Below, in pieces: positions 9,550 through 49,963 of a stretch of DNA of 55,797 nt. The notes beneath the pieces are model-generated. The model had not been told where the DNA came from. It worked only from the letters and a program-made list of their open reading frames with translations, and did not search any database. This DNA is from a virus (taxonomy: Duplodnaviria > Caudoviricetes). Location of the stretch: positions 1 through 55,797 of the IMG/VR virus record IMGVR_UViG_3300032087_002848; one strand, given 5' to 3'. The stretch's first letter is position 1, and each line of letters opens with the position of its first letter. The position numbers and the translations under genes are program-made.

Positions 9550-10458
9550 TTATGCACCTTCGGTGCCGAACACGCTGCGCCAATCAGAAACACCGAAGCT
9601 GTAACGCTCACGGGCTTTGAAACGCATGTTACCGGTATCGAAGTCCCCTTCCATTGCCGTTTTAATAGGCGAACGGTTGAAGTACTTGAAGCCGTTTGGT
9701 GCATCCGTCTTAATGAAGAAGGCATCGGTATCGACCAAGAAGTGGTTTACAACCGCTCCTTCTGGAAGCATACCCATGTTCTTCATGGCGTTTGCATCAT
9801 TGTCGGCTGTTCCCGGACGAAGGTTCGAGTTGAGAACCCGCTCTGCAATGAATTGCAGTTCTTTCGGGATAATCAGCTTCGTACCACGAACGGCAATCTT
9901 GAGGCCGCGCTCGTCTGTAAGACCAGCAATGTCGATCAGCATTTGCTCAAGAGAAGTCTCGTTGAGGTCTGCTGCGGTAGACAGCTTGTTGCGCTGGTTA
10001 CCGGACAAAGATGGGTGAGCAGTCGAGCAAAGAGCTGCACCGTCACCAATTGCAGAAGCACCCGCAGTGAACGCATTGTTCAGGATTGCGGCAGCTTTGA
10101 TTTGCTTGGTCTGAGCCATAGAGCGGGCCAGAGCCTTGGTGTAACGCGATGCCAAACGGTCATACAAGTTGTCCTCGATAGCTTCCTCAGTGATTGAGAA
10201 GGCCAGAGCGATTGTTTCGTGTGTGTACCGAGCGGTGTATGTCTCTTGAGCGTCGTCAAAGTTGATGGCAGCGCCTTCGCCTTTAACAGGTGCCGTTGAG
10301 AACCCACCGAGCATCACTTCTTCCTCAAATGCACGATCCGAAGACTCTTCGTCGAAGATCTCCGCATGTTCATTTTCGTAGCGATCATACTCAAGACCGA
10401 ACAAGGCATTCAGGCCGGGCTCAAGCTCTTTCGCTAGTTGTGCGCGAGAAATAGCCAT
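9550..10458 (-). CDS. Major capsid protein
   Basis: MAISRAQLAKELEPGLNALFG...DFDTGNMRFKARERYSFG; follows scaffold genes; strong RBS and terminator. Confidence 0.85.
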   Translation of the reverse strand: MAISRAQLAKELEPGLNALFGLEYDRYENEHAEIFDEESSDRAFEEEVMLGGFSTAPVKGEGAAINFDDAQETYTARYTHETIALAFSITEEAIEDNLYDRLASRYTKALARSMAQTKQIKAAAILNNAFTAGASAIGDGAALCSTAHPSLSGNQRNKLSTAADLNETSLEQMLIDIAGLTDERGLKIAVRGTKLIIPKELQFIAERVLNSNLRPGTADNDANAMKNMGMLPEGAVVNHFLVDTDAFFIKTDAPNGFKYFNRSPIKTAMEGDFDTGNMRFKARERYSFGVSDWRSVFGTEGA

Positions 10459-11641: not shown

Positions 11642-12508
11642 TTACTCCTTCACGTATTTCGCGTATTCTTCAAGCGGCACACCCAATTTCTTCGCTATCG
11701 CGACTTGGCTAGGGGTGAGTCTAACCTTTTTCCCACTACTGCGCCCAGAACTGCGGGATACAGAAGCAACCGTCTGAGCGGGCCGTTTACTTCCACCGTT
11801 TGACAGCTTATGTGGGAACTCTCCCGCCATACGTCTATCAAGCTCAGTATAATAGTCATCGGACTGCGGGTCAAACCCCTCGTCTTCGATCAACTTTTTG
11901 TGGATACCAAACGCGGCATACGTCATGGCTTCGTCTTCACCAAACCAAGCGTTTCTTTGGGCCCATCTTTCTGCTTTCGGGTCCGGCCTACGCGGTTGTT
12001 GCTGCGGCATTGGCTGGTTAACACGCGCTTCTTGCTGCGCCCGTGCTTGTTGAGCGTACCTTTCTTGCTGAACTTTTGCTTGTTGAGCTCTATCGTTTTC
12101 AATAGCCAGCTTTGTAATTTTGCGTTGAGCTTCGACAACACCGTTAGTGTCGCCCATTTCAATAGCTCTGGCAAGATCCTGCTCGGCAGTAGCCATCTGC
12201 GTTTCTACACGGCTGCTGTACTCAGACACATAGCTTGTATCCAAAGCATCCATGCGTGCTTTTAACTTCTGCGCTTCTGTTTGTACGCCTTGAGCGTACC
12301 TTAAAGCTTCTTCGCGCTGGCGTTCAGCCTCACGCATTTTCTTTGTCAGGCGGTCTATACGCTTTTGTGTGGCGCTTTCTGCCTTATCAAAGTTATCGTC
12401 ATCAGATGATGCTTCGACATCATCATTAGACGCAAGATCTACTTCCGCGTCTTCGCCCAAATCTAACTCAATCTGGTCTTCGTTTTCTAATTCTTGTGCT
12501 TCTGCCAT
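11642..12508 (-). CDS. Scaffolding protein
   Basis: Acidic N-terminus, coiled coil and C-terminal LTPSQVAIAKKLGVPLEEYAK. Confidence 0.7.
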   Translation of the reverse strand: MAEAQELENEDQIELDLGEDAEVDLASNDDVEASSDDDNFDKAESATQKRIDRLTKKMREAERQREEALRYAQGVQTEAQKLKARMDALDTSYVSEYSSRVETQMATAEQDLARAIEMGDTNGVVEAQRKITKLAIENDRAQQAKVQQERYAQQARAQQEARVNQPMPQQQPRRPDPKAERWAQRNAWFGEDEAMTYAAFGIHKKLIEDEGFDPQSDDYYTELDRRMAGEFPHKLSNGGSKRPAQTVASVSRSSGRSSGKKVRLTPSQVAIAKKLGVPLEEYAKYVKE

Positions 12509-15147: not shown

Positions 15148-15345
15148 CTAGAACACGCCTTTAAAGCGCTGCGGACGCGCTATGGGGCTAAAGCCCTTAA
15201 CCACGCCCCCACGCGCCATCCGCGTTACCTTGTCCTCTCCAGCCTTCGACAGGGCGATAGCAACAGCTTGGTTCTGGGGATACCCCTCAGACTTTAGCTG
15301 CTTTATGTTAGAGCCTATCGCGCGTTTGCCTCTTTTCAGAGGCAT
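15148..15345 (-). CDS. Small basic head-module protein
   Basis: MPLKRG..NIKQL..EGYPQNQAVAIALSKAG; MARGG motif. Confidence 0.65.
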   Translation of the reverse strand: MPLKRGKRAIGSNIKQLKSEGYPQNQAVAIALSKAGEDKVTRMARGGVVKGFSPIARPQRFKGVF

Positions 15346-15546
15346 TTAACAGCCCATGTAGCTCGTGCCTTTGATCGCGGCACCAGCCCCACGCATTTTC
15401 ATCTTACGCATCTTGTTACCCGCCATCGGAGGAACAGCAGTCTTGCCGTAAGGTACGCGACCCTGACCAGCAATATCAGCATATTCAACCGCTTTAGGCG
15501 GATCTTTAGGCGCAGAGCCGTTTACTTTTACTGAACGATTTTTCAT
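15346..15546 (-). CDS. Small basic protein
   Basis: MRGAGAAIKG motif; ATGA overlap with the portal stop. Confidence 0.6.
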   Translation of the reverse strand: MKNRSVKVNGSAPKDPPKAVEYADIAGQGRVPYGKTAVPPMAGNKMRKMKMRGAGAAIKGTSYMGC

Positions 15547-17990
15547 TGTGGAGAACCCCCATTCTGCTGTTTAAGTAACTCACGCTGCATTGCAGCATCA
15601 ATCCGCTGCTGCGTCTGCCGCTCTTGGCTAGCCAGCCGCTGCTGGAACTGATTAGCCCGCATCTGCTGACCTGACGCCTCAAGACTGAGCTTGGCCTGAT
15701 CCAATTGTGCGTCCGCCTGCTCGGCTTGCGCCTTGATCTGAAGCTCTTGCTCTTTAAGCTGTACCAGCGGATCGGGCCCCTGACCAGAGACTTGCTGAGA
15801 CAACTGCTTGAGCATCTGCATGCCTTCAGCAATAAACTGTGCCGTAAGTCCTTCAATTTGCAGCATTTCTTCTTCAGAAGCAGCTTGCCCACCGGCCTGC
15901 TGGCGGCTCTGAATAAACGCCACTGCCGCCTTCTCACGGGCCGCAATTCGGACATGCTCCATAATGTGCTTTTGCAAAGCCATAGCAACAGGAGGCATAC
16001 CAGATACCATCGGCGTCGAACCAAACACCATGTGCGCCATGATGTGCGCCTCATGCTCCTGACCCTCAAACGCCTTCAGAGGTATCATGTCCATCGAATC
16101 GATGTTCTCTTGCGCTGGGTCTTTAGGTGTCGGCTCGTCATCAGGTATGCGCTTCATTATGCGGTCGGTGTCACGTACACCCAACGCATCGTACATATCC
16201 CGATACACCTCATACATGTTGTGTAATTCAGGTGCCGCACCCGCCAACTGCAACTTAGTCTGCGCCAAAGCAATCCTTTGCGCCTGACTGAACACGTTCG
16301 GGTCAGAAACAGGTAACACGTCTACCCTGTCATCAAAGTCAGACCGCATAACCGAGGCATCTGCACCCTCTACAGAGTACGGATACTCCTGTGGCAAGCT
16401 CTCACTCATCACACGGGCAAGGATTTTAAACTCCTGCTTCATGCCATAGTGCAGGCGCTTGTGCACCGCACTCATCACACGAGAGCCCTGCTCCAACAGA
16501 GCGATAGTTGTGCCCACCGCAGCCTGCTGATTGCCGTCACCGACCTTCATGTCAGTGATAGTTGCAAACCTCTGACCGGCCTGAACCACAAAACCTAGTA
16601 GAGAGAACAGGGTTTGGTCTGGACCTTTGAAGGGCAGCGGCATCAGGCTGTCACGAATAGCCCCTCCGGGTGCGTCCACATCACGGAACTCACCGGGCTG
16701 AAGCGGATCATCGTCGTCTCTGATCCGTAGTCCGCGGGCCTTGAAGCCCGCCGGGAGGTTGGACAACGTACCAGCGTCGATCAACTGCCTCAGTGCCGCC
16801 GTGGCGGTGCGTGACAACCCGCCAATGGTGTGAATAAGACCTAATCCGTAAAAACCGAAGCCCGGAAGGAACTTGTAATGCACAAAATACTGAATTTTGC
16901 GCTGTAAATCGTCGTCCTCAAGATAATTCCGACGAATCGACAGGATTTGCCCGTTGTCCTGACTAATTGTGACAACATATGGTATTTTGATACCTGTAGG
17001 CTCTCCGTCCTCGTCTACATCCTCATACCCTTCCAAGTCCAAATCGACATGACACTCCAGTATGGTGCAGTCGTAGTCGATCTGACTGGGGGAAATGCCG
17101 TCAATCCGGTCTATCTCGTCCTCTACACTGTCCAATTCGGCCTGTGCAGGGATAACCGGTATGTCCAAATAGAAGCCCGCGACCTGCTTTTTCCGCAAAT
17201 CGTTCAACGACATGCGTATAACCTGCGTTATGTTCGGGCATGTATCCAAATCTGACGTTTCATACGGCACCACGAGGTTTTCAGCAGGGATAAACTTACT
17301 TACCGCACGGCCCAAGGTCTCGTCATAGTACACCTTCTTGAACGTGCTGCCCGCCAACGGCAGGTAAAACAGCATCTGGTCCATATCCGGCGTGTAGTCC
17401 TCCATCACGTTCGTGATGTAGTAATTCATAAACTGCTTCACGCGCTGCGCCTGCGACTGCTTTTCCCGCGTTTCCGCGCCCATAACAGCAGTTCTCACGG
17501 GCCCCGAAGCAGGTAACAACTCATTAAAGGCCTGCGCCTGAAATTGCGTAGCAGCTTCCGCCAACAACGGATGTGTTACCCCAGAAGCACCCCTAAACGG
17601 CTGCGTCCGCTCTTCATAAGTAAATCCAAGCAACTCCAGCCCGTTGGCATACGCATCTTCCCAATCCTGCCGACTTGCCTTATTTGCGTCATATTCCGCC
17701 AACAACTCACCAGCAATGCGGCTCAACTCACGGTCAGGCATCTCCTCCGCTAGATTAGCATAGAAATCATCCGACTCTCCGCGCTGATCCTGCGGGTCAA
17801 AATCAATAGTAACCCCGCCGTCTTCCTCCGGAGTCACCTGAATATCCATATTGTCCGCCATACCTTCAAAAGCTATGACATTGTCCATGCTGCCCGGAAC
17901 CTCTAGCTCCACCTCGGCAGCTAAATCTTCCGGATCAAGTTGTGATGGAACATTCCTGTCCACCATTCCAGCAATCGGTTCACGCGCCAT
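15543..17990 (-). CDS. Portal protein
   Basis: 815 aa; HPLLAEA, GSTFKKVYYD, GFYGLGL and LRQLIDAGTLSNLP motifs; long Q-rich C-terminal coil; downstream of terL. Confidence 0.85.
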   Translation of the reverse strand: MAREPIAGMVDRNVPSQLDPEDLAAEVELEVPGSMDNVIAFEGMADNMDIQVTPEEDGGVTIDFDPQDQRGESDDFYANLAEEMPDRELSRIAGELLAEYDANKASRQDWEDAYANGLELLGFTYEERTQPFRGASGVTHPLLAEAATQFQAQAFNELLPASGPVRTAVMGAETREKQSQAQRVKQFMNYYITNVMEDYTPDMDQMLFYLPLAGSTFKKVYYDETLGRAVSKFIPAENLVVPYETSDLDTCPNITQVIRMSLNDLRKKQVAGFYLDIPVIPAQAELDSVEDEIDRIDGISPSQIDYDCTILECHVDLDLEGYEDVDEDGEPTGIKIPYVVTISQDNGQILSIRRNYLEDDDLQRKIQYFVHYKFLPGFGFYGLGLIHTIGGLSRTATAALRQLIDAGTLSNLPAGFKARGLRIRDDDDPLQPGEFRDVDAPGGAIRDSLMPLPFKGPDQTLFSLLGFVVQAGQRFATITDMKVGDGNQQAAVGTTIALLEQGSRVMSAVHKRLHYGMKQEFKILARVMSESLPQEYPYSVEGADASVMRSDFDDRVDVLPVSDPNVFSQAQRIALAQTKLQLAGAAPELHNMYEVYRDMYDALGVRDTDRIMKRIPDDEPTPKDPAQENIDSMDMIPLKAFEGQEHEAHIMAHMVFGSTPMVSGMPPVAMALQKHIMEHVRIAAREKAAVAFIQSRQQAGGQAASEEEMLQIEGLTAQFIAEGMQMLKQLSQQVSGQGPDPLVQLKEQELQIKAQAEQADAQLDQAKLSLEASGQQMRANQFQQRLASQERQTQQRIDAAMQRELLKQQNGGSPQ

Positions 17991-18038: not shown

Positions 18039-20561
18039 TCAATATTGCTTCATACTCACAATTCCACCTTCCGGTGACTTAAACGAACGCTCCCCGGGCC
18101 GTCGCCCAAGGACCACGTCTAACTGCTCATAAAGCTTCGGATCAACCCGATTAGCAAGCTGACGAGGCGTCGTAGCAAGACCAGCTAACTTCAATAACTT
18201 CGCGCCAAAAGCCTCGTTGCGTTGGTCCGTGGGCCGCGGATCACGGCTCACGGGTACGGTGACGATGCCGCCTTCATCAAACTTAATGGTCCGCGAACCA
18301 TAGATCCTGTAATCGTCGGTATCCGGGTTATAGCTCCCCTCCACACGATAACCTTCTGGACTTTCATAATAGCCAGAGATGTTACCATACTCTACGCCGT
18401 CTGTGCCGTATTTGAGGCTCTCGGGGGCCCCAAAGAAACGAGCCTCATCACTAAAATCCATTTTACCTTCGAGGTAATTAGCCTCCCGACCTATACCAAA
18501 ACGCCGACCTTCTGGCGTTAAAACCTCAATCCCTAATTTTCCAAACGCCTCATCTTCTGATGTTTCCACAAAAGGGTTTCTAGATTGTTTTCCAAGATCC
18601 CCTTGAGCAAAAACCTTTGGCATTATGGCATAATCACCAACACCAAAGGACAATTGCTCTGATGGAAGGGGTGAACCTTGTCCTAAATCGACCGCAGAAC
18701 CTCCTACTTCTCCACCGCTTTCAAATACCTTTGTCGAATACCCTCGTTCAACAGGCGCGTTAAAGTTCGCAATAGATTTTTCTAAGTTCTCGAGAAGCAT
18801 TTCAGGCGTTATTTCCTCCGCCGTGAAAAGATACTCTTCCGGCACACCACGTTTCCGCTGATCCATGCGAAGAAAATGTAACATATCCTGACGCGCCCCG
18901 AGTATAACCTGTTCCCCGTAAGGCGCTTTATTATAATCTTTGGCGGGCATAGTTAGGATGTCATCTAAAACACGGAGCACAATATCTCTATTTTCAGGCG
19001 TAGGGTTATTTAAATACCTGCCTATAGGATAAAACGACTCGCGCTCTTCCTTATACTCTTCTGGAAGATTTTCCCCGCTTCTTATATGCTCACTGGCTTG
19101 CATTGATTCAATCAGAAAATGCTCTGGATTACTCGTATACGGGCTCCGGTCCTTAATGCTTCGCTCACGTATCACTTCAGACAAAATACTTAAAGGGGAG
19201 CTCTCTACCGGAGACATACCAACATCTAAAGGATCTGTTATTGATTTTATGCCAGCATGTTCCAGCTCATGCCTAATCACCCCTTTTTCCGCATCCTGAC
19301 CTACTATAATACCGCGCGAAGGTATGTTTACCGGGCCCCGCGAGCCTTCATAAGCAGTTTTGCTTGATCCCTCCCTAACAGGGACCGGAAAAGTATTCGG
19401 GTTATAAACACCCGCACTAGGAACACCCGCGATGTACAACGGGAGCTCTTCGACAGTAGCATCTCCGCCTAAGTTACGAATGAGGCTGGACAAGCCACCT
19501 TCTGAAGAACGAAGTTGAATTTCCCGTAGGCCGCGTTGCGCGAGATTTGAGGCCATGTCATCGCCAGAGCCGATAACGTCCACAACAAACTCGGTGTCGG
19601 CCAACCCAAACAAATCATCTAGCGTGAACACGTCGTTGGCGTAAGGGCCTTCGCCGACCACGCCGCCTTGGTCAAATTGTTCAAAGGGATGTAATTCCCG
19701 TCCCGTATCTGGCTTTGTATTAAAATTCATAGAGGCTTGCATCAAGCTATCAAGAAGCTGGTATGGAAGAATTTGATTAGCAATGGGTGTTTTTCTGCTA
19801 AAAACCCCGTCTTCTTTTAACATATGAATAGCGGTGTTATACACGCTGCGATCAAAAAAGTTGCTTCTACTCGGACTAGACAAAGCCTGTTGAATACGAT
19901 GTAAGGCTTGATCCCTGTTTTCATCCGAGGGATCATTCATATATTGAGCTATTGTATCAAAGCCTAACCGACCAACACTTTGTGCTTCTTTAGAAAGCTT
20001 TTCTCCTGTTTTTAATCTAGTAGAAGCATCTAAACTTTCTATTAACAAATGCTCTGCATCGGAAGAGTCGCCTTTTTCAAGGACTTTAGATAGCGCATCC
20101 ATAGGTACGGGTACTTCATATCCCCCAAGTTCCATAGAACGCCGCAAGGCATCAAAGCCACGATGGGCTAACTCATGCCTAATTCCGCCGGTGGAAATAG
20201 ACGGGTTTGTTAAAATACCACCGGGCGCAACTTCTACAACGCCACGGCTTCCAATTGAGCTAAAGGCGTGTGGTTTGAAGGGATCTTTGTTATATATAGC
20301 CCCTGCTCCGGATAAACCCGCATCTGGACCTAAATCTGCTCCTACGTTTCGTATTTTTTCCCACAAATCGCCGCGTCTAGTGCTCGCGTTAATACTCTGT
20401 ATGCCACGTTCTGCAAGACCATAGGCGGAATCGTCTCCATACCCAATAAGATCTACGGTTAACTCAGTGTCGGCCAACCCACGTAAGTGGCGTTGCTCTC
20501 TGTCTTCCAAATACCCTTGAACAGCGTCTGCGGCCCCTGTGTTAACTTTTGACTCAGCCAT
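18039..20561 (-). CDS. Multidomain putative virion cargo protein with two HExxH (zincin-like) domains
   Basis: IRHELAH and IRHELEH in duplicated domains; domains separated by FDQGG, FESGG, FDEGG and PEGG. Confidence 0.6.
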   Translation of the reverse strand: MAESKVNTGAADAVQGYLEDREQRHLRGLADTELTVDLIGYGDDSAYGLAERGIQSINASTRRGDLWEKIRNVGADLGPDAGLSGAGAIYNKDPFKPHAFSSIGSRGVVEVAPGGILTNPSISTGGIRHELAHRGFDALRRSMELGGYEVPVPMDALSKVLEKGDSSDAEHLLIESLDASTRLKTGEKLSKEAQSVGRLGFDTIAQYMNDPSDENRDQALHRIQQALSSPSRSNFFDRSVYNTAIHMLKEDGVFSRKTPIANQILPYQLLDSLMQASMNFNTKPDTGRELHPFEQFDQGGVVGEGPYANDVFTLDDLFGLADTEFVVDVIGSGDDMASNLAQRGLREIQLRSSEGGLSSLIRNLGGDATVEELPLYIAGVPSAGVYNPNTFPVPVREGSSKTAYEGSRGPVNIPSRGIIVGQDAEKGVIRHELEHAGIKSITDPLDVGMSPVESSPLSILSEVIRERSIKDRSPYTSNPEHFLIESMQASEHIRSGENLPEEYKEERESFYPIGRYLNNPTPENRDIVLRVLDDILTMPAKDYNKAPYGEQVILGARQDMLHFLRMDQRKRGVPEEYLFTAEEITPEMLLENLEKSIANFNAPVERGYSTKVFESGGEVGGSAVDLGQGSPLPSEQLSFGVGDYAIMPKVFAQGDLGKQSRNPFVETSEDEAFGKLGIEVLTPEGRRFGIGREANYLEGKMDFSDEARFFGAPESLKYGTDGVEYGNISGYYESPEGYRVEGSYNPDTDDYRIYGSRTIKFDEGGIVTVPVSRDPRPTDQRNEAFGAKLLKLAGLATTPRQLANRVDPKLYEQLDVVLGRRPGERSFKSPEGGIVSMKQY

Positions 20562-20576
20562 TAAACATCTCCGCGC

Positions 20577-21380
20577 TCATCGGCCCATTATACGCTCTAT
20601 TTGAGATAAAATCTCGGGGTTTATCATTCTATTGTCTACAGGGAGGTCTACAACGCCGCCTTCCGCCTTATTTATTTCTGGTTCTACTTCTATACGAACT
20701 GACATTGGCCTACCTTCCGGGCCCCGAACAATCAACTCTCCTTCCGCCTCATAACCAGCGAAAAGAACATCGTCCTTATCAACTTCAAAAAATCTTTTTT
20801 CTCTCCTGCCCTCTACACCAGCTTTAGGGTCCGAATAGTTTTCGGTTCTTGAAACCGGTATTTTATCACCCGGAAATGTTCTATCTAAGTTAGCTCGTAA
20901 CACATCGGCGTAATCAAGGTACTCATCCGAAGATAAGGCTTTGTTTAGTGACGTGAAATCTATGTCATAGATATATTTATTTAAGTTTTCACCAATTTCT
21001 GGGAACTCTAAAAGCGCCCCTTGATCCCCCATAGCATCAAAAAAATCTGTTTTTTCTAGGGTCCTACTTCCACGTAAAGACTTTCCTAAAGCTTGTGCAC
21101 CTTTAAGGGCTGCACCCAAAGGAGCCGTAGCCCCCATCATATACAAAGCATCTCCCGCGCCGCCTAACACCTGTAACCCGGCACCTAAATAATCGCCTTT
21201 TCCTATGTTTTCAGAAAAAGAAGGGGACATCTGACCGGGGTTAAACGGGTCCGGCATTTGGCCAAAAAGATCCGCAATACCCGCGCCGGGTACAAAACCC
21301 GCTCCCAGCGCTGCTGTAGTATGGGCCACTGACCCTACATCAACTTTACTGGTGGGCGTTTTGTCTTTTGACTCAGCCAT
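20577..21380 (-). CDS. Putative virion cargo protein: Gly-rich hydrophobic N-terminus plus ADP-ribosyltransferase-like C-terminus
   Basis: GFVPGAG...LGAGLQVLGGAG; IPVSR...FEVDKDDVLF..EAEGELIV; KAEGG. Confidence 0.45.
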   Translation of the reverse strand: MAESKDKTPTSKVDVGSVAHTTAALGAGFVPGAGIADLFGQMPDPFNPGQMSPSFSENIGKGDYLGAGLQVLGGAGDALYMMGATAPLGAALKGAQALGKSLRGSRTLEKTDFFDAMGDQGALLEFPEIGENLNKYIYDIDFTSLNKALSSDEYLDYADVLRANLDRTFPGDKIPVSRTENYSDPKAGVEGRREKRFFEVDKDDVLFAGYEAEGELIVRGPEGRPMSVRIEVEPEINKAEGGVVDLPVDNRMINPEILSQIERIMGR

Positions 21381-21394
21381 GTGACAGAAAACCC

Positions 21395-22840
21395 CTAGTA
21401 ATATGCCCGCACTTTAACAGAAGTCTCACCATCTTCCCAGTCATCTGTTGGAAGCTGTACAAAGTTACCCTGACGATAACGCATCAAGGCCTGTGTCATA
21501 CTATCAACCAAGTCGTCATGCTCCCCGTTTGGAAACGCCGCGACCTCTTCAATCATCTCATCCGCAAATACCGTGTCGGGGGCCCAAACCATGCCCGCTT
21601 CAAACAGAGGAGAAACAGAGTGTACTCGCGTTACTTTATCATTTCCCTTACTCGGGGTAAAGTTGACGACAGGTATGCCCATGTTCCGTAGTTCGTGGGT
21701 CAAGGGCAGTCCAGAGGCTTTCGCTTCCACAATTACTGTGTCGGGCTCCCAGTATTTATATTGATCCAAAGCCACCTGCTTCAACTCTGGAAAATCCCAA
21801 CGATCCTTCTTACTGTCCAAAAGTATGAGTCCCGGCGGGCCCCCTATCTCCTCTGGACGAAAAACACCCCACGTTGTTATCGCGCTAAAATCAGCCGTCT
21901 CGCGTTTACTGAACGCCGTGTCATAGCTCTGAATGACGTATTCAAGATTAGGTATGTTCTTCTTTTCCCAGCGCTGCCACCACTGGCGCGGTATAATCGC
22001 GTTCTCTTCGCCCGTCGGGTTCTGCTGATACTGCGCGTTCCATTTGCTGGGAGGTATAGATGCGCGGACCGCGGTCAGATCCTCAATGCTCCAGAACTCT
22101 GGCCAACACGGAGTGCCGTCATCAAAAATCGCAGGGAGTTCCACAACTTCCCACTGATCCGCTAGGGGGTCTTTAGCCATCGCCTTCAAAAGCTGGCCTG
22201 TCATGTCCTTTTCAGACCACCGGGTCTGTACCAGAACTATCGAGCCCCCCGGCTGGAGCCTCTGTCGGGGGCCCCCGGTGTACCAATCCCAAGCATCATC
22301 AAACCCGTTCGCTGACATAGCTGTTTGTTCAGAGTGCGGGTCATCAATAATTACCAAGTCACCACCACGACCCGCGAGGTTTGACCCAACTCCGACGGCA
22401 TAGTACATGCCGCCAGAAGAAGTGTCCCAGCGACCAGAAGCTTTACTATCCGCAGCCAGTTTAACATTTGGAAAGACCTCCTTGAACTCGTCGCTATCCA
22501 AAAGGTTTTTCGTTTTACGACCAAAGTTGACGGCTAGCTCCGTTGTGTGAGTAGCCTGAATGATCTTCATGCGCGGGTTTTTACCCATCATCCAAGCGGG
22601 AAACAAGAACGAAGCGAACTCTGACTTCGTATGACGCGGGGCCATGTTGATGATCAGGCGCTTTAAGTCGCCTTTTGCGACCCTTTCCAACTTTTCAGCA
22701 ATAATTTTGTGGTGTCGGCCCGCAATAAACTCCGGCCACATGGATTTTACAAACGTCAAAAAATCATTCTGACAAGCTTCATTCTTCTCGATTTGGGCAA
22801 GCCGTAAACGAAGCTTTAGTTCTTGATCAGAAACATCCAT
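21395..22840 (-). CDS. terL: Terminase large subunit
   Basis: INMAPRHTKS Walker A, IIDDPH Walker B, QTRW, SYDTA and HDDLVD nuclease motifs. Confidence 0.95.
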   Translation of the reverse strand: MDVSDQELKLRLRLAQIEKNEACQNDFLTFVKSMWPEFIAGRHHKIIAEKLERVAKGDLKRLIINMAPRHTKSEFASFLFPAWMMGKNPRMKIIQATHTTELAVNFGRKTKNLLDSDEFKEVFPNVKLAADSKASGRWDTSSGGMYYAVGVGSNLAGRGGDLVIIDDPHSEQTAMSANGFDDAWDWYTGGPRQRLQPGGSIVLVQTRWSEKDMTGQLLKAMAKDPLADQWEVVELPAIFDDGTPCWPEFWSIEDLTAVRASIPPSKWNAQYQQNPTGEENAIIPRQWWQRWEKKNIPNLEYVIQSYDTAFSKRETADFSAITTWGVFRPEEIGGPPGLILLDSKKDRWDFPELKQVALDQYKYWEPDTVIVEAKASGLPLTHELRNMGIPVVNFTPSKGNDKVTRVHSVSPLFEAGMVWAPDTVFADEMIEEVAAFPNGEHDDLVDSMTQALMRYRQGNFVQLPTDDWEDGETSVKVRAYY

Positions 22841-23315: not shown

Positions 23316-23348
23316 AAAAAAAACCCGCTAGGTAGTTAGCCTAGCGGG
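23316..23348 (-). terminator. Intrinsic terminator
   Basis: CCCGCTAGG/CCTAGCGGG stem plus U8. Confidence 0.75.
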
Positions 23349-23371
23349 CGAGATAAGCGATCAGTGACGCG

Positions 23372-42944: not shown

Positions 42945-43389
42945 ATCTCCTTATATCAAGCTCGGACTGTACGCCCGTGGCATACCCAACACGCTTTCCC
43001 TTCATCTGACGGATAAAATAAGCCCCGTCATAAGGATAGGTTTCAAGATAGCGCTCCGTCAGTTTCTTTTGTGTAAATCGTGCCACTTCATAAGCGTTCT
43101 GATATGGCGCAATGAAATCTATCACATACATCGTACCATCTCTTGGTCCATTACTCCAGATCGATGCTGGTAGTTTACTAGAACCATCCCTGTATCCCTG
43201 CGCCACATCTTTAGGGAGGAAGGCGTGTGTAAAAAGACCCACGGGCCGTGGTGCGTAGGGCGCGGGCTTATACAGGATGTCCATCTTCCCGTGTGCGATA
43301 GCCGGTACAATTAAGCGATCAAGATCGTGAATATACCAATCACGGTGAAATTCAGATTTCAGCATCAATTTTATGGCGTCGGAGATCAT
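42928..43389 (-). CDS. hlyC: RTX toxin-activating lysine acyltransferase (HlyC/RtxC, TAAT family)
   Basis: SEFHRDW (cf. HlyC SPLHRNW), IVPAI (VLPAI), PVG (PVA), VIDFIAPY (FIDWIAPF), FIR (AIR). Confidence 0.8.
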   Translation of the reverse strand: MISDAIKLMLKSEFHRDWYIHDLDRLIVPAIAHGKMDILYKPAPYAPRPVGLFTHAFLPKDVAQGYRDGSSKLPASIWSNGPRDGTMYVIDFIAPYQNAYEVARFTQKKLTERYLETYPYDGAYFIRQMKGKRVGYATGVQSELDIRRYACAV

Positions 43390-46300
43390 CCCATTAAGCT
43401 TCCTATGCCCTGACCCTGCCTAATTAAGCCTGAAGCAATGTCTGTCGGGAACATCGCAGCATAACGGCTCCTGTCAACCGGGCCGCTGGCCGCGGGAGGC
43501 GGCGTAATTGGCCTCGGCTGAACAGGAGCAGCCGACGCAACACTGGTTGTGGGAGCTGCCGGTTGCGACGGTAAGTTGTTGGGTTGAAGAAGTTCTGGTC
43601 TGACTGAGCTTTGATCGTCCGAAAGGCCCATACGTTCAAGCATCTCTTCTCTAGTTATTCCAGTACCACGGTCTTCATCCTCATACATTTCACGAATGAT
43701 GTAAGGGGATTGACCTGCGGCTACTTCAAAACCTTTATCTGATAGGATGCGTTGAATACGACTTAGTTGGTTTTGCTTTTGTTTTGCGTTAGTTGCTGGT
43801 CGTAACAAAGTAGCAGCCAATTCTGGATCAGCAAAGAGCATCTGCATCGCTTCCATCCGCTTTGAGGAAGGATTGTGTTTAAACATATCTAAAATAAAGC
43901 GCTTACCTGCCGCCGCTGCACTAATTGCGCCTGTTCCCGATTCTCCACCCATCAAAGCTTTATAGGCTTTTGAACCACCTGCAAGACCAACCATTCCGAC
44001 ATAAAAATCGAAGATGGGTCCCGCCTGTTGAATCAATTCAGGATCATCTAATTTACCCGCAGCGTCTGCTGCCGCTAACCGTACCATTTGATTAGAGATG
44101 GTACGCATACGAGTAATCTGGTTTTTATCCATTATCCCGTATTGTTTAGCTATATCGACTAGAGACTGAGATCCACCACTTAACCCAGCGCCTTGTCCTT
44201 TAACTGGACTAAACATTATTTTGTGAAAAGTTATAGGATCAAAGGTTTTGATGGACTCGCCACCCGCGTTCATAAACGCATATTGCAATATAGCGTTTTC
44301 AAAACCCTCGTTTATTTTTGCCCGAATTGCATCTTGCTCTTCTTTAGGAAGAAGCTTGCCGTCGGGGCCTCTGTACTTGACCGTGGTTAAACGGAACAAA
44401 CGCTTTAGGCCGCCCACAGGGTCTTTAACAGTGCCTTTTTTAGGCACAAAATTCATAGCTTCTGAAATAGCCGCGGTTGGGGAACTGTTACCAATTAGAC
44501 CCGCAAGATAAGATTGACTGTCGGCTAATTTCTTTGATTCCGCGGAGCGAGCATCATAAACCTCAAAGGTGCGTTGAGCTGCAATTGCATTATCTAGATC
44601 CTGTTCTAGGGCCGGGAACCGCGATAGAGTTTCCGCGTTCTCTTGTTTCCACCTAGCTAAAGCGTCAGCATTTACCTGACCTTCTCTGGAGTGGCCCGGA
44701 GGAAATACGGACTTTTTCCGCGCATCACGGATAGCGCTTTCCATGATGTTGTTAATGGTTGTGAAGGTTTTTGTTGCTCCTTCAAAACCTTGTTCTTGGG
44801 CAAACTCAGCTATGCCTTGTAACTCTTGTATCCGAAGATCGGTAACATCCGGATTTCCGCGGATAAACTGTTGTGTTAAAAGCTCTGGAGGAATACGTCG
44901 CGCACCCATTGCTGTTTCGGCACGAGCTTTACCAACTATGGAACGAGTATAAACATCGTTTAATGCTGCGGAATAGCTACGTGCTACATCGTAAGCGTCA
45001 TTAACACCATCTTCAACGGTGTTCATGTCATCCAAGATAGCTTCGGCTATCTCACCAAATTGCCGAGCTTGGTTAGCCGTGCCTCGACGCGTTGTAGCAC
45101 CACTATATAAGTTAGAGGCGTCATTTAAAACTTCTCGTCTAAGTTTCACAAGTTCGTCCGCTGTTACAGGAGAAACTCTGGATGGGTCGGCTTTTGCTAT
45201 TTCTAGCTCGAGTATTTTCGCTTGTGCGCGGGCCGCAGGAAGCATTGTGCTCTTTTGAGCATTAGTGAACCTGTTACCATACAGCATTGCAAACTTAGAT
45301 TTATCTTCAAGTTGAGAAGAAATCTTTTTTGCAGCAGCTAGACGGTTTGAAAGCGATGCGCCCTCTCCCGCCTCCTGATTTATAAGCGTGTTAAGAGCGT
45401 TGACAGAATCGGCATCTTGTCTGGTTAACCGGCTAATAACACCTTTTTGTTCAGCAATACCTTGACGAATATCCAAACCAAGCCGTTGTTTCATGTTTTG
45501 TACGGTTTTATGGAGCGCTGGAGCGGCGGCTATAAACTCATCGCGATATTCGGGTAATATGTCTTGTAAAAGCTCGTCATATTTAAGGATAAAGGAAGGT
45601 GTAACACTTCCCTCAATAATTTCTTGAGGATTAAATACTGTAAATCTACCCACCTTATCCCACAGAGCTTTTTCTCTACGACGAGCAAGTTCTAACTGAC
45701 TGTCTATGGTATCCGCCAACATGCCTGAAAAAGCTTGCTGGCTTCTTTCGTTAATTGGTCCCTTTAACAATTGTTGAGCCGCTTTTATCCGCGCATCAAC
45801 GGCAGCCGTCAAACGAGTTTTAAGGGCATCATCAAACATTCCTCGGCGCAAAACAGCGGCTGTTTTTAAAGCATCCTGAGAGCCTTCTGATATTAGACCT
45901 TTGATCCAGTTATCAAAAAACTCTTTTGCGTTACGGTCAGCTTTCATTTTAGTGGCCATTAATTCAGGATTTTGTTTAGCCATTGCGGCTTCAACCATCA
46001 TCAAAAGGCCTGTATCGTCTTCTAACCGTTGACCGGCAGTAAATTCAACGTCAGGGAACACTTCGGATAAAATCGCCCGAGTTTCTGCGTTATTAAGATC
46101 GGCCATCATTTTTTCATAATTGCCGCCGTGAAGCTCGAACAACTCGTTCATCCGGTTAAAGAGCTTCCGTTGCTTACCTGTAGCAACCTTACCAATTAGA
46201 ACGTCACCAGCGTCGCCATTCTCTTTTACAATGTTGTAAGCTTTTGGCATAAGCTTACTTAAAGTAGCCGCGAAGGTATTACCCCCGATAAGTTCACTGG

Positions 46301-47201
46301 CTAACCTTGGACCTGTTTGTCCCGGATATGTTGCTTCTGCATATCTTGCACCTACACCCGACCCCAAAACAGGTACAGCTTCGCCCAAAACAGTTAAACC
46401 AGCGCCTACTTTTGAAGCTTTAGCTGATCGGCCCATGCCTTCGATCATGTTTTCGATAGCCGCCGTCATCCGTGTGGCAACAGGCGCTGAAGCATCTTCC
46501 GCTAAATTAGCAATAAAGTCCCGTGCAGCGCGATTCGTGAACTGTTTCATAAGAAAAGGGAACTGTATGCCCGCGGTACCACCGCCAAGGGTACGCACCA
46601 TTTCTACGTTGGCTTTTTGCCCCGGTAATATTGGAACATCTGGGCCAAAAATACCTTCTTCTAAAGCATCTGCACCTTCATATAAAAGCATACCACTGCC
46701 GATAAAGGCCGCTAAAGGAGGTGCGGCCTGTAAACCAAACTGTAATATACTTGTGGGCGGCTTACGAAAGGTTCTTGCAGCAGTCATTTGTGCTGCTTTT
46801 GTGCCAGCAGCCACACTAGGTGCAGTTTTGAAAAACTCAGAAAAGAAGGCTCCGGGTAAAGAGCCTATTTCAGCGTTAGATAATAGCGCGGAGATAGCAT
46901 CAGGGTTCTGAAATCGAACAGCACGTTCCGCGGGGAGCATATCGCGGATAGGCTTCTGTTCTCCATTAACTTCCATTGTGTATTGAGGTGAAAGCTGGTC
47001 AAAAAAGGTAGCTTTCCCTGATTTGATCAGGTCATAGTTGAAGAAATTGGGGTCTTCCTGAATTTGATCAGCAAAATCTACCGAAAAGGTGTTAACCAAA
47101 TCTTTGGCCAAATAATCGGAAGCTTCCTGCCCGAAGTTAAGGCGAAAATCGTCAATTATCTCAGGTTTGAGCTCAACTTTATTGATCGTGAGATCAGCCA
47201 T
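43386..47201 (-). CDS. Large DNA ejection/internal virion protein
   Basis: 1271 aa, helical, Gly-rich hydrophobic stretches; podoviral ejectosome position. Confidence 0.6.
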   Translation of the reverse strand: MADLTINKVELKPEIIDDFRLNFGQEASDYLAKDLVNTFSVDFADQIQEDPNFFNYDLIKSGKATFFDQLSPQYTMEVNGEQKPIRDMLPAERAVRFQNPDAISALLSNAEIGSLPGAFFSEFFKTAPSVAAGTKAAQMTAARTFRKPPTSILQFGLQAAPPLAAFIGSGMLLYEGADALEEGIFGPDVPILPGQKANVEMVRTLGGGTAGIQFPFLMKQFTNRAARDFIANLAEDASAPVATRMTAAIENMIEGMGRSAKASKVGAGLTVLGEAVPVLGSGVGARYAEATYPGQTGPRLASELIGGNTFAATLSKLMPKAYNIVKENGDAGDVLIGKVATGKQRKLFNRMNELFELHGGNYEKMMADLNNAETRAILSEVFPDVEFTAGQRLEDDTGLLMMVEAAMAKQNPELMATKMKADRNAKEFFDNWIKGLISEGSQDALKTAAVLRRGMFDDALKTRLTAAVDARIKAAQQLLKGPINERSQQAFSGMLADTIDSQLELARRREKALWDKVGRFTVFNPQEIIEGSVTPSFILKYDELLQDILPEYRDEFIAAAPALHKTVQNMKQRLGLDIRQGIAEQKGVISRLTRQDADSVNALNTLINQEAGEGASLSNRLAAAKKISSQLEDKSKFAMLYGNRFTNAQKSTMLPAARAQAKILELEIAKADPSRVSPVTADELVKLRREVLNDASNLYSGATTRRGTANQARQFGEIAEAILDDMNTVEDGVNDAYDVARSYSAALNDVYTRSIVGKARAETAMGARRIPPELLTQQFIRGNPDVTDLRIQELQGIAEFAQEQGFEGATKTFTTINNIMESAIRDARKKSVFPPGHSREGQVNADALARWKQENAETLSRFPALEQDLDNAIAAQRTFEVYDARSAESKKLADSQSYLAGLIGNSSPTAAISEAMNFVPKKGTVKDPVGGLKRLFRLTTVKYRGPDGKLLPKEEQDAIRAKINEGFENAILQYAFMNAGGESIKTFDPITFHKIMFSPVKGQGAGLSGGSQSLVDIAKQYGIMDKNQITRMRTISNQMVRLAAADAAGKLDDPELIQQAGPIFDFYVGMVGLAGGSKAYKALMGGESGTGAISAAAAGKRFILDMFKHNPSSKRMEAMQMLFADPELAATLLRPATNAKQKQNQLSRIQRILSDKGFEVAAGQSPYIIREMYEDEDRGTGITREEMLERMGLSDDQSSVRPELLQPNNLPSQPAAPTTSVASAAPVQPRPITPPPAASGPVDRSRYAAMFPTDIASGLIRQGQGIGSLMG

Positions 47202-47203
47202 GT

Positions 47204-49963
47204 TTAGTCGCTCCCCTCGACTGCTCCAGCACTTTTATTAACTCTTGGAAGATTACCCGTAATCCCACCACCGGAAGAGGAACTAACACCCGCGCCGCGG
47301 CCCCCGATGTTTGCTTCGTAAGCAAGAATTGCTGCGGTGTATTCAGCAATAAGTTTTTCGGTATCCATTACTGCAAGTCTAGCTTGTTCTACTGTTTCCG
47401 AACTAAATGCACCCGGTACTTGTTCGGCTCTATCTAATATATATTTCGCACGAGCATAACCGGAAGCCAAAGAATTTCTTACTGTGCGGAGTTGCTGAAG
47501 GGCACCCACATCAGACTTTGCCCCGCTTGGAAGGAAGCCCTTAACTTCTTGCATAATAAGCTCTACATCCAAAGCAAAGACTTTACCTTTAGTATCCGCT
47601 CTAAGGACATTTTGCGTCCGACGACCAAGGGACGCAAGTTCTTTATCAGCAGCACTTGTGATCTTGCTCTCTCTACCGGCATAGCCCGTACCCAGACCCA
47701 ATTCTGCAAGCTGTCCAGCAATACCATTGAAGAAGCGGTTAAGCGAAGAAACAAAACCTTGCGATTTAGTGTAATCCAAGCCCGTAATAATAAAGGTTGG
47801 ATCAGCCGTGGCCCGCTCAATATTAACCGTGCCGTCTGGGTTGATCAGAGGCACATCTTGCGACGGACCGAGCTTTTGCATCTCCTCTTGCGATAAATCC
47901 AACGTGTTAAGAGGAACAGGTGATTTAAGGTTAGAATTACCCAATATACGCTTTTTAATTGCTTCCTTAACAAAATCAGGTAGCTGTCGTTTCTGCATAA
48001 ACCCACGGGCATCCGGAACAGGGGCCGTGTAAGCTGCAATCATGCTATCCATTATCCTGTCATCACCGCCCTCGGCATAGGCATCAATAGCCTTAACACC
48101 TTCTGCAACTTCACCAAGAGAGAAATAACGAAGGGCTTTGTCAGCGCTGCCCTTGCCAAAGATATCTGGCGGAGTGTCAGCCTTTTCATAAGGACGAAAG
48201 GCATCCGCACCAAAAGCATCTTTAAGGGAACTTATTTCTTTTTCGTTGAGATAAAGAGGGGTTCCCGCAGGTATACTCTGTCCTTTAATAACCATGTCTT
48301 TGGTATTAATGACAGGCTTAGTGGACTCTGGACCTTGTGTTGTGGTAACACCACCCAGTGTACCACCAAGGCCACCTTCATCTACAGGTGTAATGGCTTT
48401 TTCGTAAGCGTCCGTGCCTTTTCTATACACTCTGCGGCTACCATCAGGGAAAACGATGTTTACGTCTTCTTTCTCTTCTGCTTTGTAAGGTTTAACCGAG
48501 GTTGCAAAACCTTCAATTTTATCCGCTTCTCCCGAATCTATTGCAATAATAGTTCCGGGCAGTTGTTGCTGACCCTCATAAAAAATAGGTTTTGTTACTT
48601 CGTAAAACTTCTTAGCTCCACCCTCACCGCTTACTTCTTTGTAGGGTTTCAAAGCATCCGGATCTATTTTGGCCACCTGATTTGGACGTAGGTTTAAAAT
48701 TTTACCTTTGGGGTATTCTACCCCATCAAGCACTATAGGCTTTTGTGTGACAAAAGCTTTGGTGGCTTTTACCTCTGTAGTTTTAGATTTAAGCCTTTGT
48801 AAGGCTCGAGCTTCTTTAGCAGCAACTTCTGCCGCCAACTTAGTTTCAGCCGACTGCAACGCAGCTAAATCAAGGGCGCGCTCTTCCTTCTTAGAAGCTT
48901 TTTCGGCCTTCGCCTGCTCCGCCACTCTAGCAGCAATAGTCTGTGGTAGCTTAGTTTGTGCCGCAACAAAAGCAAGCCGCTCTGCCGGGCTCATACCAGA
49001 TCGCTCTCCGGGCACTCCACCCGCATAAGCAAGACCCATCTGCGCTATATCAAAAAGTATTTGCGCCTGCATGGCGTCTTTATCTTTTTCGAGTTGCGCG
49101 GCGCGTTCTTCGGGATCACCTAAACCATACTTACGATAAATTGCTTTTTGAGCGTCCATCAGTTGACCAAGACGTGTTCCGTCGCCTTGAGTTGGTGCGG
49201 GCACCGCGTCGTTGTTCGCAGCTAATCCGTAAAGCGCTAAACTGTCTTCAAGGCCCAGATCAAACCCACCACCAGCTACCCGGTTCCTATTCTCTGGAGC
49301 AAAGTATTGAACCGGCTGGTTGTATCCGCGGCGGACCAGCCCGCCTTGGTTAAAATTTACGGGAGGCGGGCCCTCCATACCCATAGGAGGCATCTCTTCT
49401 GGTGGCGGTTCAGACACCGTAGACATAATACCTCCGGCCATATCGCCTTCAACCGGTTGAGTCATCTCAGCTTCGGCCAAGCCCCCAATGCCTTGGTCCA
49501 CGGCGTTCATCATCATTACCGGCTGAAGAAGAGCCAAAACAGATTCAGGGGTTTCTCCCGCATCTTCTGGACCGACTATTTCAGCAAGCTCTTCGTAGCG
49601 TGATTCTAACGGAGCCTCATCGCCCCGAATGGAGTTAATTACTGTCTCAAAGTCTTCAGCGTCATCTAAGTTACTGATGCTCTGTTGTGCAGAACCGAGC
49701 ATTTGCTCCAGAACTGCTGGGTCCATCGACTGCATAGCAACAGAAGCCGCTTCAGGAGGAACTGCATCTTGAGCCGCCATGCCGCCAGCCATGCCGGGAG
49801 CCGCAGCCATAATCCCAGCCATGCCGCCGTCCTGCATAAACTTCACACCTCGACCCATCAAGATGTCTTTTTGAGTTATCTTGCCGTCGTTATTTAAGTC
49901 GGGAAACCCGGCTGCGCCGCCATTCCGGAACATTTGACGATCCATTACACCTCGGTTCATCAT
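47204..49963 (-). CDS. Internal virion/ejection protein
   Basis: 919 aa; EF-hand-like DLNNDGKITQKD; several xxGG motifs. Confidence 0.6.
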   Translation of the reverse strand: MMNRGVMDRQMFRNGGAAGFPDLNNDGKITQKDILMGRGVKFMQDGGMAGIMAAAPGMAGGMAAQDAVPPEAASVAMQSMDPAVLEQMLGSAQQSISNLDDAEDFETVINSIRGDEAPLESRYEELAEIVGPEDAGETPESVLALLQPVMMMNAVDQGIGGLAEAEMTQPVEGDMAGGIMSTVSEPPPEEMPPMGMEGPPPVNFNQGGLVRRGYNQPVQYFAPENRNRVAGGGFDLGLEDSLALYGLAANNDAVPAPTQGDGTRLGQLMDAQKAIYRKYGLGDPEERAAQLEKDKDAMQAQILFDIAQMGLAYAGGVPGERSGMSPAERLAFVAAQTKLPQTIAARVAEQAKAEKASKKEERALDLAALQSAETKLAAEVAAKEARALQRLKSKTTEVKATKAFVTQKPIVLDGVEYPKGKILNLRPNQVAKIDPDALKPYKEVSGEGGAKKFYEVTKPIFYEGQQQLPGTIIAIDSGEADKIEGFATSVKPYKAEEKEDVNIVFPDGSRRVYRKGTDAYEKAITPVDEGGLGGTLGGVTTTQGPESTKPVINTKDMVIKGQSIPAGTPLYLNEKEISSLKDAFGADAFRPYEKADTPPDIFGKGSADKALRYFSLGEVAEGVKAIDAYAEGGDDRIMDSMIAAYTAPVPDARGFMQKRQLPDFVKEAIKKRILGNSNLKSPVPLNTLDLSQEEMQKLGPSQDVPLINPDGTVNIERATADPTFIITGLDYTKSQGFVSSLNRFFNGIAGQLAELGLGTGYAGRESKITSAADKELASLGRRTQNVLRADTKGKVFALDVELIMQEVKGFLPSGAKSDVGALQQLRTVRNSLASGYARAKYILDRAEQVPGAFSSETVEQARLAVMDTEKLIAEYTAAILAYEANIGGRGAGVSSSSGGGITGNLPRVNKSAGAVEGSD

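Follow-up and report, generated by a model that had tools for sequence, protein, structure and literature searches.

Modular organisation of a putative cargo protein encoded between the terminase and portal genes of a marine podovirus

The virus record IMGVR_UViG_3300032087_002848 of IMG/VR (Duplodnaviria; Caudoviricetes) was analysed over its positions 1 to 55,797, a stretch of 55,797 nucleotides referred to here as the window, which is a single viral record with a CheckV completeness of 96%. Nearly all of its genes lie on the minus strand. Among them is a reading frame, 18039..20561 (-), open over 840 amino acids (aa), whose product (P0001) an initial annotation had described as polyprotein-like cargo made of two HExxH domains and a beta domain. 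We find P0001 to be a modular protein with a duplicated N-terminal module, a beta module and a helical tail, joined by short glycine-glycine motifs, in a locus whose content varies among close relatives. Its placement between the genes for the terminase large subunit (terL) and the portal is confirmed, and the interval also holds a 267-aa gene that the annotation had left out. The locus reads as follows.

21395..22840, minus strand: terL (phrog_38, E 5.4e-110), upstream boundary of the putative cargo locus.
20577..21380, minus strand: second putative cargo gene, 267 aa, within the terL-portal interval; its product starts MAESK.
18039..20561, minus strand: modular putative cargo gene, P0001, 840 aa; an open frame.
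15543..17990, minus strand: portal (SU10_portal, E 9.5e-15; phrog_1216, E 2.3e-56), downstream boundary of the locus.

The gaps between these four genes are only 14, 15 and 48 nt, so terL, the two putative cargo genes and the portal gene probably form one late operon. Neither the 840-aa nor the 267-aa protein matches any Pfam or PHROG family (for P0001, Pfam at E<=1). The window terL shares 61-63% identity with its counterparts in Pelagibacter phage HTVC027P and phage 023Pt_psg01, and 54% with that of HTVC023P. The window also encodes GroES, as do phages of the HTVC023P/HTVC027P group, for which GroES is described as a core gene in PMC9599517, a paper with 80 HTVC023P-type genomes.

P0001 is made up of modules D1 and D2, a beta module and a C-terminal helical tail, in that order, with junctions of the type F-x-x-GG-(I/V/E)-V between them. 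All coordinates below are on the minus strand.

20532..20561, minus strand: N-terminal motif MAESKVNTGA; homologues begin MA(E/D)S(K/R)V(N/D)LGAG, and the predicted local distance difference test score (pLDDT) is <50 for aa 1-18.
19677..20504, minus strand: module D1, zincin-like in its AlphaFold model, aa 20-295; HELAH at 20163-20177 and EHLLIES, with Glu175, at 20034-20054.
19653..19676, minus strand: junction 1, FDQGGVVG, aa 296-303, inside a stretch of pLDDT <50 (aa 288-310).
18726..19652, minus strand: module D2, the paralogue of D1, aa 304-612; HELEH at 19257-19271 and EHFLIES at 19104-19124.
18702..18725, minus strand: junction 2, FESGGEVG, aa 613-620; the N-terminal motif recurs after it as GSAVDLGQGSP.
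18279..18701, minus strand: beta module, aa 621-761; its strands form a long antiparallel meander, and its last residues are RTIKF.
18258..18281, minus strand: junction 3, FDEGGIVT, aa 761-768; the model adds a strand at IVTVPVSR, with pLDDT ~54-77.
18078..18257, minus strand: tail module at the C-terminus, aa 769-828, with three helices in the model; the short counterpart of the ~200-aa tail of relatives.
18054..18077, minus strand: C-terminal motif copy SPEGGIVS, followed by MKQY and the stop codon.

Every sequence element listed in the initial annotation was found where it had been placed, and the modular character of the protein is borne out by self-comparison, by homologue architectures and by two AlphaFold models. 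D1 and D2 had been called diverged duplicates, in agreement with a BLASTP alignment of aa 1-305 to aa 306-640 that is 33% identical across 311 columns (E 8e-42). They share a 21-mer at 19588-19608 and 20461-20481, two matches where none was expected from 100 shuffles, which codes for the GLADTE(F/L) motif. It had also been proposed that every domain is bounded by FxxGG. This holds for the three N-terminal modules, which end in FDQGG (aa 296-300), FESGG (aa 613-617) and FDEGG (aa 761-765); it does not hold for the fourth GG, eight residues before the C-terminus, which reads FKSPEGG and has its Phe two positions further back.

In D1 the HELAH motif occupies aa 129-133 and EHLLIES aa 170-176; the D2 equivalents are HELEH at aa 431-435 and EHFLIES at aa 480-486. 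A conserved Glu (E175 in D1, E485 in D2) thereby lies 42-50 residues after HExxH, close to the His-to-Glu spacing of ~45 in anthrax lethal factor. All 13 complete D modules retain both HExxH and this Glu (seen in 12 by regular expression and in P0015 by reading). The distant P0011 and P0015 are among them, and since these two lack the His of EH.LIES, conservation is limited to HExxH and the Glu. An AlphaFold model built for aa 1-310 from a 10-sequence alignment (pLDDT 77.4, predicted template modelling score 0.76) places a small beta sheet at aa 70-118 ahead of a helix with HELAH (124-144) and a later helix with E175 (167-185), and its pLDDT falls below 50 at aa 1-18 and aa 288-310.

Structures were compared with VIA-align against 48,161 chains, of which the top 50 rows were read. 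The best match to D1 is the catalytic domain of lethal factor (1yqy; Z 5.6, root-mean-square deviation 4.5, 148 residues aligned, model 24-288), and the ArdC metalloprotease domain (6sna; Z 4.0, 130 aligned) ranks 19th, both scores falling in the range that VIA-align calls common. Among these top 50 the only matches spanning the body of D1 are zincins, namely lethal factor and ArdC; the other top rows align a single helix to model residues 1-42. The ESM Atlas gave DUF2268, Peptidase_M78 and DUF6782 as weak neighbours of the D module (template modelling score 0.35-0.38), which are leads only. As in lethal factor and ArdC, HExxH sits on a helix after a beta sheet and the Glu on a later helix; in contrast, sequence identity to D1 is 8-14% with no sequence-level match, and no counterpart of the conserved N-terminal GLADTE..VD.IG.GDD segment was identified in either protein. 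The initial annotation's reading of the HExxH domains as possible metalloproteases thus agrees with a zincin-like layout (sheet, HExxH helix, Glu helix) and with weak matches to zincin folds. On these models the D module appears to represent a new zincin-like family, and a metallopeptidase fold is likely. At least four further, mutually dissimilar HExxH modules occur in the family (in P0019, P0023, P0016 and the 744-aa protein of L022). A D-only profile compared by hhalign with three other HExxH modules of the family gave short, weak alignments at HExxH with a probability of 7-23%, a hint at most.

The beta module was modelled within aa 621-840 (31-sequence alignment; pLDDT 82.7, rising to 89-98 in blocks across model residues 21-140). 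Three of its strands are 17-19 residues long and another five or six are shorter. With VIA-align, 171 chains reach Z>=5, and 7 of them Z>=8. The best matches are KdgM (9.1), VhGalP (8.8), PapC, OmpG and BrkA (8.6) and further autotransporter barrels (8.1-8.5), and about 45 of the 50 best rows bear titles of transmembrane beta barrels. The likeness to an outer-membrane protein drawn by the initial annotation is therefore retained, as the module superposes on outer-membrane beta barrels and has a conserved terminal Phe. With the KdgM/NanC porins, OmpG and autotransporter barrels it shares a long antiparallel meander (Z 8.1-9.1, 101-142 residues aligned), a composition rich in Gly, Tyr and Asp, and a last strand ending in Phe, at which seven free-standing homologues of the module end exactly. 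Unlike these barrels, it is internal to a phage protein and without a signal peptide, it has only some 8-9 strands and resembles part of a larger barrel, and P0001 matches no Pfam outer-membrane protein family. By inspection, none of the seven free-standing homologues has a signal-peptide-like N-terminus; they start MD..FL..L without a hydrophobic stretch. The matches cover only part of barrels of 12 to 22 strands and no eight-stranded barrel is in the top 50, so the sheet may be open or may oligomerise. A two-copy complex prediction for aa 621-776 scored 0.00 with 'no answer', which speaks neither for nor against oligomerisation.

Is this module a membrane protein at all? It is quite possible, if short of probable, that it is a soluble sheet or small barrel serving as a binding or spacer domain and that its porin likeness is that of any antiparallel meander. 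Foldseek found nothing for the model in the PDB at E<=0.001, and the VIA-align scores of 6.4-9.1 are near the best of 7-8 that is typical of models without a clear match. The soluble proteins 3msw and 4r03 are among the matches, while no eight-stranded chain of the OmpX or OmpA type appears in the top 50. Read from the sequence, the tip of the first hairpin is highly charged, strand 3 is charged on both faces, and several strands have charged residues on both faces, unlike a classical lipid-facing barrel. A soluble domain would leave less readily accounted for the predominance of transmembrane barrels (about 45 of 50), the Gly, Tyr and Asp-rich composition, the conservation of a C-terminal Phe that is the final residue of seven free-standing homologues, and a model with neither a second sheet nor a helix to cover its hydrophobic face. 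That the module inserts into a membrane is itself doubtful. Where podovirus ejection proteins are known to form outer-membrane pores (T7 gp14, DEV gp73), these are described as helical (PMC10925440), and a porin-like module in phage cargo would therefore be unusual.

Segments of the tail type are found in 53 of 74 family proteins and are the last segment in every one. The long tails (~200 aa) of relatives match DUF6973 weakly in all 10 scanned (E 2e-6 to 0.04), one of the ten above the 27-bit cut-off, whereas the short tail of the window protein has no DUF6973 match at E<=10. No mention of DUF6973 was found in the literature searched.

The neighbouring 267-aa protein is built along related lines, with a Gly/Ala-rich hydrophobic N-module, a C-module, and then AEGGVVDLPVDN and a short tail ending IERIMGR. 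This end, V/I-N-P...Q-I-E-R-I-M-G-R, is a still shorter version of the tail and aligns with the end of the long tails. The first 16 bases of the 267-aa and 840-aa genes are identical (MAESK). The N-module, GAGFVPGAGIADLF...LGGAGDALYMMGATAPLGAALKGAQALG, resembles a glycine-zipper membrane segment, and similar segments are seen in P0016, P0017, P0068 and L022/L023. It is fused to a D2-beta-tail protein in L004/L007, and the C-module recurs in P0017 and L023. No named neighbour of the 267-aa protein was returned by the ESM Atlas. An ADP-ribosyltransferase-like C-module was considered from an impression of the sequence and set aside, as nothing supports it.

Homologues of P0001 were found in uncultured marine sequences only. 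A tblastn search of 50,697 GenBank phage records with P0001, P0021 (a free-standing beta module) and P0029 (a long tail) gave no match. A word-indexed search of 5.8 billion clusters returned six relatives of P0001, and a profile search of 1.84 billion representatives gave 63 matches at E<=0.001, 6 of which cover the HExxH module and the others the beta module or the tail; a word-based search for short beta-module proteins yielded a single 107-aa fragment. Four homologues illustrate how the modules are combined.

P0004: D1-D2-tail.
P0005: D1-beta-short tail.
P0006: D2-insert-beta-tail.
P0003: the 267-aa gene's N-module, followed by two further modules and D2-beta-tail.

Through the tail module, 13 distinct loci were retrieved (L007-L016, L022-L024), in which terL is 85-98% and the portal 78-98% identical to those of the window, where present on the contig. 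The cargo genes of these close relatives differ both in length and in module content. They encode 253 aa (L012, L014), 331 aa (L024), 347 aa (L010), 522-524 aa (L015, L016), 600 aa (L009) or 951 aa (L004/L007), against 267 + 840 aa in the window, and L022 and L023 have two cargo genes each, in differing order. When 74 family proteins were roughly cut at the motif, 168 segments resulted, which fall into 9 recurrent module clusters and 20 singletons; the sample is biased, as its members were gathered by a profile built from the D, beta and tail modules. An invariant locus would have spoken against the modular cargo proposed in the initial annotation, and instead the module sets vary among phages with near-identical terL and portal.

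In more distant phages the same interval has the following content.

HTVC027P (gp41/gp42): two unannotated genes, 483 + 892 aa.
023Pt_psg01: two unannotated genes, 615 + 751 aa.
HTVC023P (gp30): one gene, 201 aa.
DSL-LC04 (L018 8430-10907): one 825-aa 'PcfJ-like' gene.
Planktothrix phage Pag-Yong1 (terL 44% identical): no gene.

The portal is annotated in 023Pt_psg01, DSL-LC04 and Pag-Yong1 only; the portals of HTVC027P (834 aa) and HTVC023P (777 aa) are unannotated ORFs assigned by size and position. None of the interval genes of HTVC027P, 023Pt_psg01, HTVC023P and DSL-LC04 is BLAST-similar to P0001, yet these dissimilar genes still carry xGG(R/I/V/L)(V/I) motifs (ADGGRIGY, FDVGGIVN, FEDGGRVGF, MADGGLVD). 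The DSL-LC04 protein opens with three tandem copies, FAMGGPVG, MADGGLVD and FAEGGEVE. Nothing on these terL-portal genes was found in the available parts of the literature on HTVC023P-type phages. L006 (5947-11653; terL 36% identical) has its portal directly after terL and a free-standing beta-module gene heading a cluster of large proteins, several of which start A.K...G(S/A)L.

What, then, is the motif that separates the modules? A count of [FY]xxGG over 73 family proteins gives 97 occurrences, where 200 residue shuffles give 30.2 +/- 5.5, an excess that is not a clean probability because the sequences are related. The motif takes an N-terminal form, MA(E/D)S(K/R)V(N/D)LGAG, an internal form, F-x-(D/E)-GG-(I/V/E)-V-(x)-L-(G/P), and a C-terminal form, SPEGGI(V/G/D), which on their sequences look like versions of one motif. 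Had the motifs lain inside folded domains, their role as boundaries would have been in doubt; in the two AlphaFold models both junction motifs tested fall in linkers, aa 288-310 having pLDDT <50 and aa 621-638 pLDDT 52-66. P0017 and P0019 hold an internal ...GGEVE..GMADS(K/R)V(N/D)LGAGAP... that includes the Met of a former start codon, and L012 begins MNSPAVNLGAGGFVSYYEDGGATV, in effect an 'empty' module, from which it follows that cargo genes have been fused and split at the motif. L004/L007 has one gene where the window has two. The five copies in the window differ synonymously in their codons and have about 10 nt at most in common, so conservation is at the protein level. On the same observation, linkers for DNA-level recombination were rejected; the presence of the motif in distant phages with unrelated flanking modules also speaks against them. 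2A-like skipping and self-cleavage of the SEA or intein type were likewise rejected, their signatures being absent from the motif.

The motif extends to other proteins encoded in the window. Two small basic ORFs (66 and 65 aa) lie right after the portal gene at 15148-15546 (-) and may encode DNA-associated head proteins; the 65-aa protein, which adjoins the portal, has the motif as MARGGVVKG and ends KGVF. A 606-aa putative internal protein (50985-52805, -) begins MAKSAV...FSFPEGGIG, with the motif at aa 12-19, and ends GGIMPDEGIPGKDSVRAMLMPGEFVM; the distant D-module protein P0011 has a similar end, GGPIPGG...HEGEYVIP. A 919-aa putative internal protein (47204-49963, -) has FRNGG, FMQDGG and FNQGG within its first 210 residues. 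A 244-aa ORF (42210-42944, -) contains tandem repeats (PDNSYSDMFGS.DSYSAAP twice, SPVDTFAEI twice) and has the C-terminus GGVGSLLRR, which recalls the cargo-loading peptides of encapsulins. The major capsid protein is encoded at 9550..10458 and a 288-aa putative scaffold at 11642..12508. Upstream of the terL operon lies a strong terminator-like hairpin (23323-23349, -) of 10 pairs, 7 of them G-C, with a T run after it.

Candidate functions for the motif are processing, docking and, less likely, recruitment of a chaperonin. Cleavage at GG is a tentative proposal. Dedicated cysteine proteases cut the polyproteins of adenovirus and African swine fever virus at GG-X, and for P0001 the order of events is constrained by the tail. 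Every polypeptide has exactly one tail, at its C-terminal end; if the tail is the address, cleavage at an earlier stage would lose the cargo, which argues against cleavage before packaging and would place processing after packaging or ejection.

Docking offers a different account, and a rather unlikely one in our estimate, in which the protein stays intact, GG(I/V)V forms a short strand by which head-internal proteins are held at the capsid shell, the scaffold or the portal, and the zincins act only on host proteins after ejection. The motif is common to the 606-aa, 919-aa and 65-aa putative internal proteins and to the 244-aa protein ending GGVGSLLRR, and cutting at the extreme N- and C-terminal copies would free only tiny peptides. 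Encapsulin cargo-loading peptides, which bind an HK97-fold shell, are rich in Gly, Ser and Leu (GSLxIGSLK type), and we take the homologue C-termini GGIGSMKQY and GGIGSL to be similar to them. GGIVTVPV is modelled as an added beta strand, but at a modest pLDDT of 54-77, and the degeneracy of the motif also speaks against a docking peptide.

Recruitment of GroEL, by mimicry of the GroES mobile loop, for folding of the modules or refolding after ejection, is highly improbable. It was suggested by the loop of the phage GroES (12518..12970, -; Cpn10, E 5.5e-10), KTDGGIYLPD, which can be set beside DEGGIVTVPV and AEGGVVDLPV of the cargo; the GroES loops of relatives read KTKGGIVLAE, KTKGGVILAD and KTAGGIIRPD. 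The core status of GroES in the phage group and the position of the motif in disordered linkers, like that of the mobile loop, would fit. However, the likeness amounts to about four residues (GG and two hydrophobic), the register of the following Leu-Pro differs, and the HTVC027P and 023Pt variants read GGR(V/I)G.

P0001 might also be a late protein working in the infected cell rather than one delivered from the virion, its zincins being a head-maturation protease that trims motif-bearing internal proteins. The prohead proteases of T4 and phiKZ cut near the N-termini of internal proteins, and the motif is near such N-termini here. The gene is in a late packaging operon with gaps of 14 to 48 nt, and no other protease was seen among the window proteins scanned (no prohead protease in a PHROG scan of 24 proteins, no protease family in a Pfam scan of 8). 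We nevertheless regard this reading as improbable. L010, L012, L014 and L024 keep the motif and have no HExxH module, a core assembly enzyme should not swap among phages whose terL is >85% identical, and the D module is very rare (the 6 of 63 matches among 1.84 billion representatives).

Which known proteins does P0001 most resemble? The initial annotation had named polyvalent proteins and MuF toxins. In temperate phages, MuF-toxin fusions combine a constant packaging-related part with a variable effector, in a gene adjoining the portal gene. P0001 likewise has a constant, putatively packaging-related part, variable putative effector parts and a gene beside the portal gene; it differs in that the constant part is C-terminal and the variable modules are several, not one. 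As neither Pfam nor PHROG detects a MuF domain in the 840-aa or 267-aa protein, a MuF fusion was rejected.

The comparison with polyvalent proteins fared better. As described by Iyer et al. 2017 (PMC5512222), these unite many unrelated domains in one polypeptide, occur in phages with a portal-terminase system, show extensive mosaicism, and have zincin-like metallopeptidases as their commonest domains, sometimes in several copies; their commonest domain, MPTase, was unified with lethal factor (PMC5512222). P0001 similarly has four modules of three kinds in one polypeptide. Pfam domains of polyvalent proteins occur in family members or neighbours, with LPD23 in the family member P0019 (75.3 bits, cut-off 27) and the nuclease-like PBECR5 (75.5 bits) in L006, in a gene two places after the free-standing beta-module gene. 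PcfJ occurs in the DSL-LC04 protein, which occupies the same interval and carries the motif and is not a sequence relative of P0001. P0001 departs from polyvalent proteins in its short modules (~60-310 aa), most of which fall outside known families, in the conserved punctuation motif on either side of each module ('linker' does not occur as a word in the available text of PMC5512222), in its constant C-terminal tail and in the fixed position of its locus between terL and portal.

Delivery of head-stored proteins has been described for crAss001 gp45, a cargo kept in the head until its delivery, ahead of the DNA or along with it, with a compact domain that binds the portal and partial unfolding for passage (PMC10172136). 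P0001 differs from podovirus and crassvirus ejection proteins in having no sequence or fold link to them, and the standard large internal proteins of this phage are apparently encoded elsewhere, at 43386..52805.

With moderate confidence, we read P0001 as a modular virion cargo protein of an HTVC023P/HTVC027P-type marine podovirus and as a divergent polyvalent protein. The C-terminal tail would address the whole polypeptide to the procapsid near the portal, and the protein would be ejected together with the DNA. Packaging is suggested by the place of the gene in the probable late operon, between terL and portal. The linkers could let every module unfold and refold separately, and may be recognised for processing once the protein has been packaged or ejected, or else for docking. 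The zincin modules might cut the linkers or host proteins, and the beta module might act at the outer membrane.

Several observations weigh against this reading. P0001 has none of the Pfam domains that are signatures of polyvalent proteins (MPTase-PolyVal, LPD, PBECR and the like). MPTase-PolyVal (PF18818) was unmatched in the six frames of the window at E<=10 and absent from the 10 members of one family alignment. Foldseek found nothing for the D1 model in the PDB or BFVD at E<=0.001, the D alignment profile had 0 matches to PDB sequences at E<=10, and to these are added the common range of the D1 scores and the Foldseek result and charged strand faces of the beta module. Relatives with cargo of 253-347 aa keep the motif without an HExxH module, so the D modules are not a general enzyme for the motif. 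The PHROG scan of 24 window proteins shows no prohead protease. Virion proteomics for this phage group was not found in the available literature, supplements aside.

A broader proposal, which is speculative and in our judgement quite unlikely, is that [F/Y]-x-[D/E]-GG-[I/V]-V is a general address-and-processing signal for head-internal proteins of HTVC023P-type podoviruses. Motif-flanked modules would be loaded, delivered and released, and the porin-like beta module, having no signal peptide, would reach the periplasm via the phage tail and insert by its C-terminal Phe signal.

Relatives of this phage infect SAR11 and are reported in a preprint to be dominant in marine viromes, with structural and delivered proteins that are almost wholly unannotated. 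The terL-portal locus appears to store rapidly exchanged delivered modules and therefore likely records an arms race with the ocean's most abundant bacteria. It would add a new zincin-like family, and a porin-like module in a phage protein without an export signal. The punctuation motif would provide a simple rule for module boundaries, and hence for mining effector domains from viromes. Should it turn out to direct loading or cleavage, it could become a tag for directing foreign proteins into phage heads.

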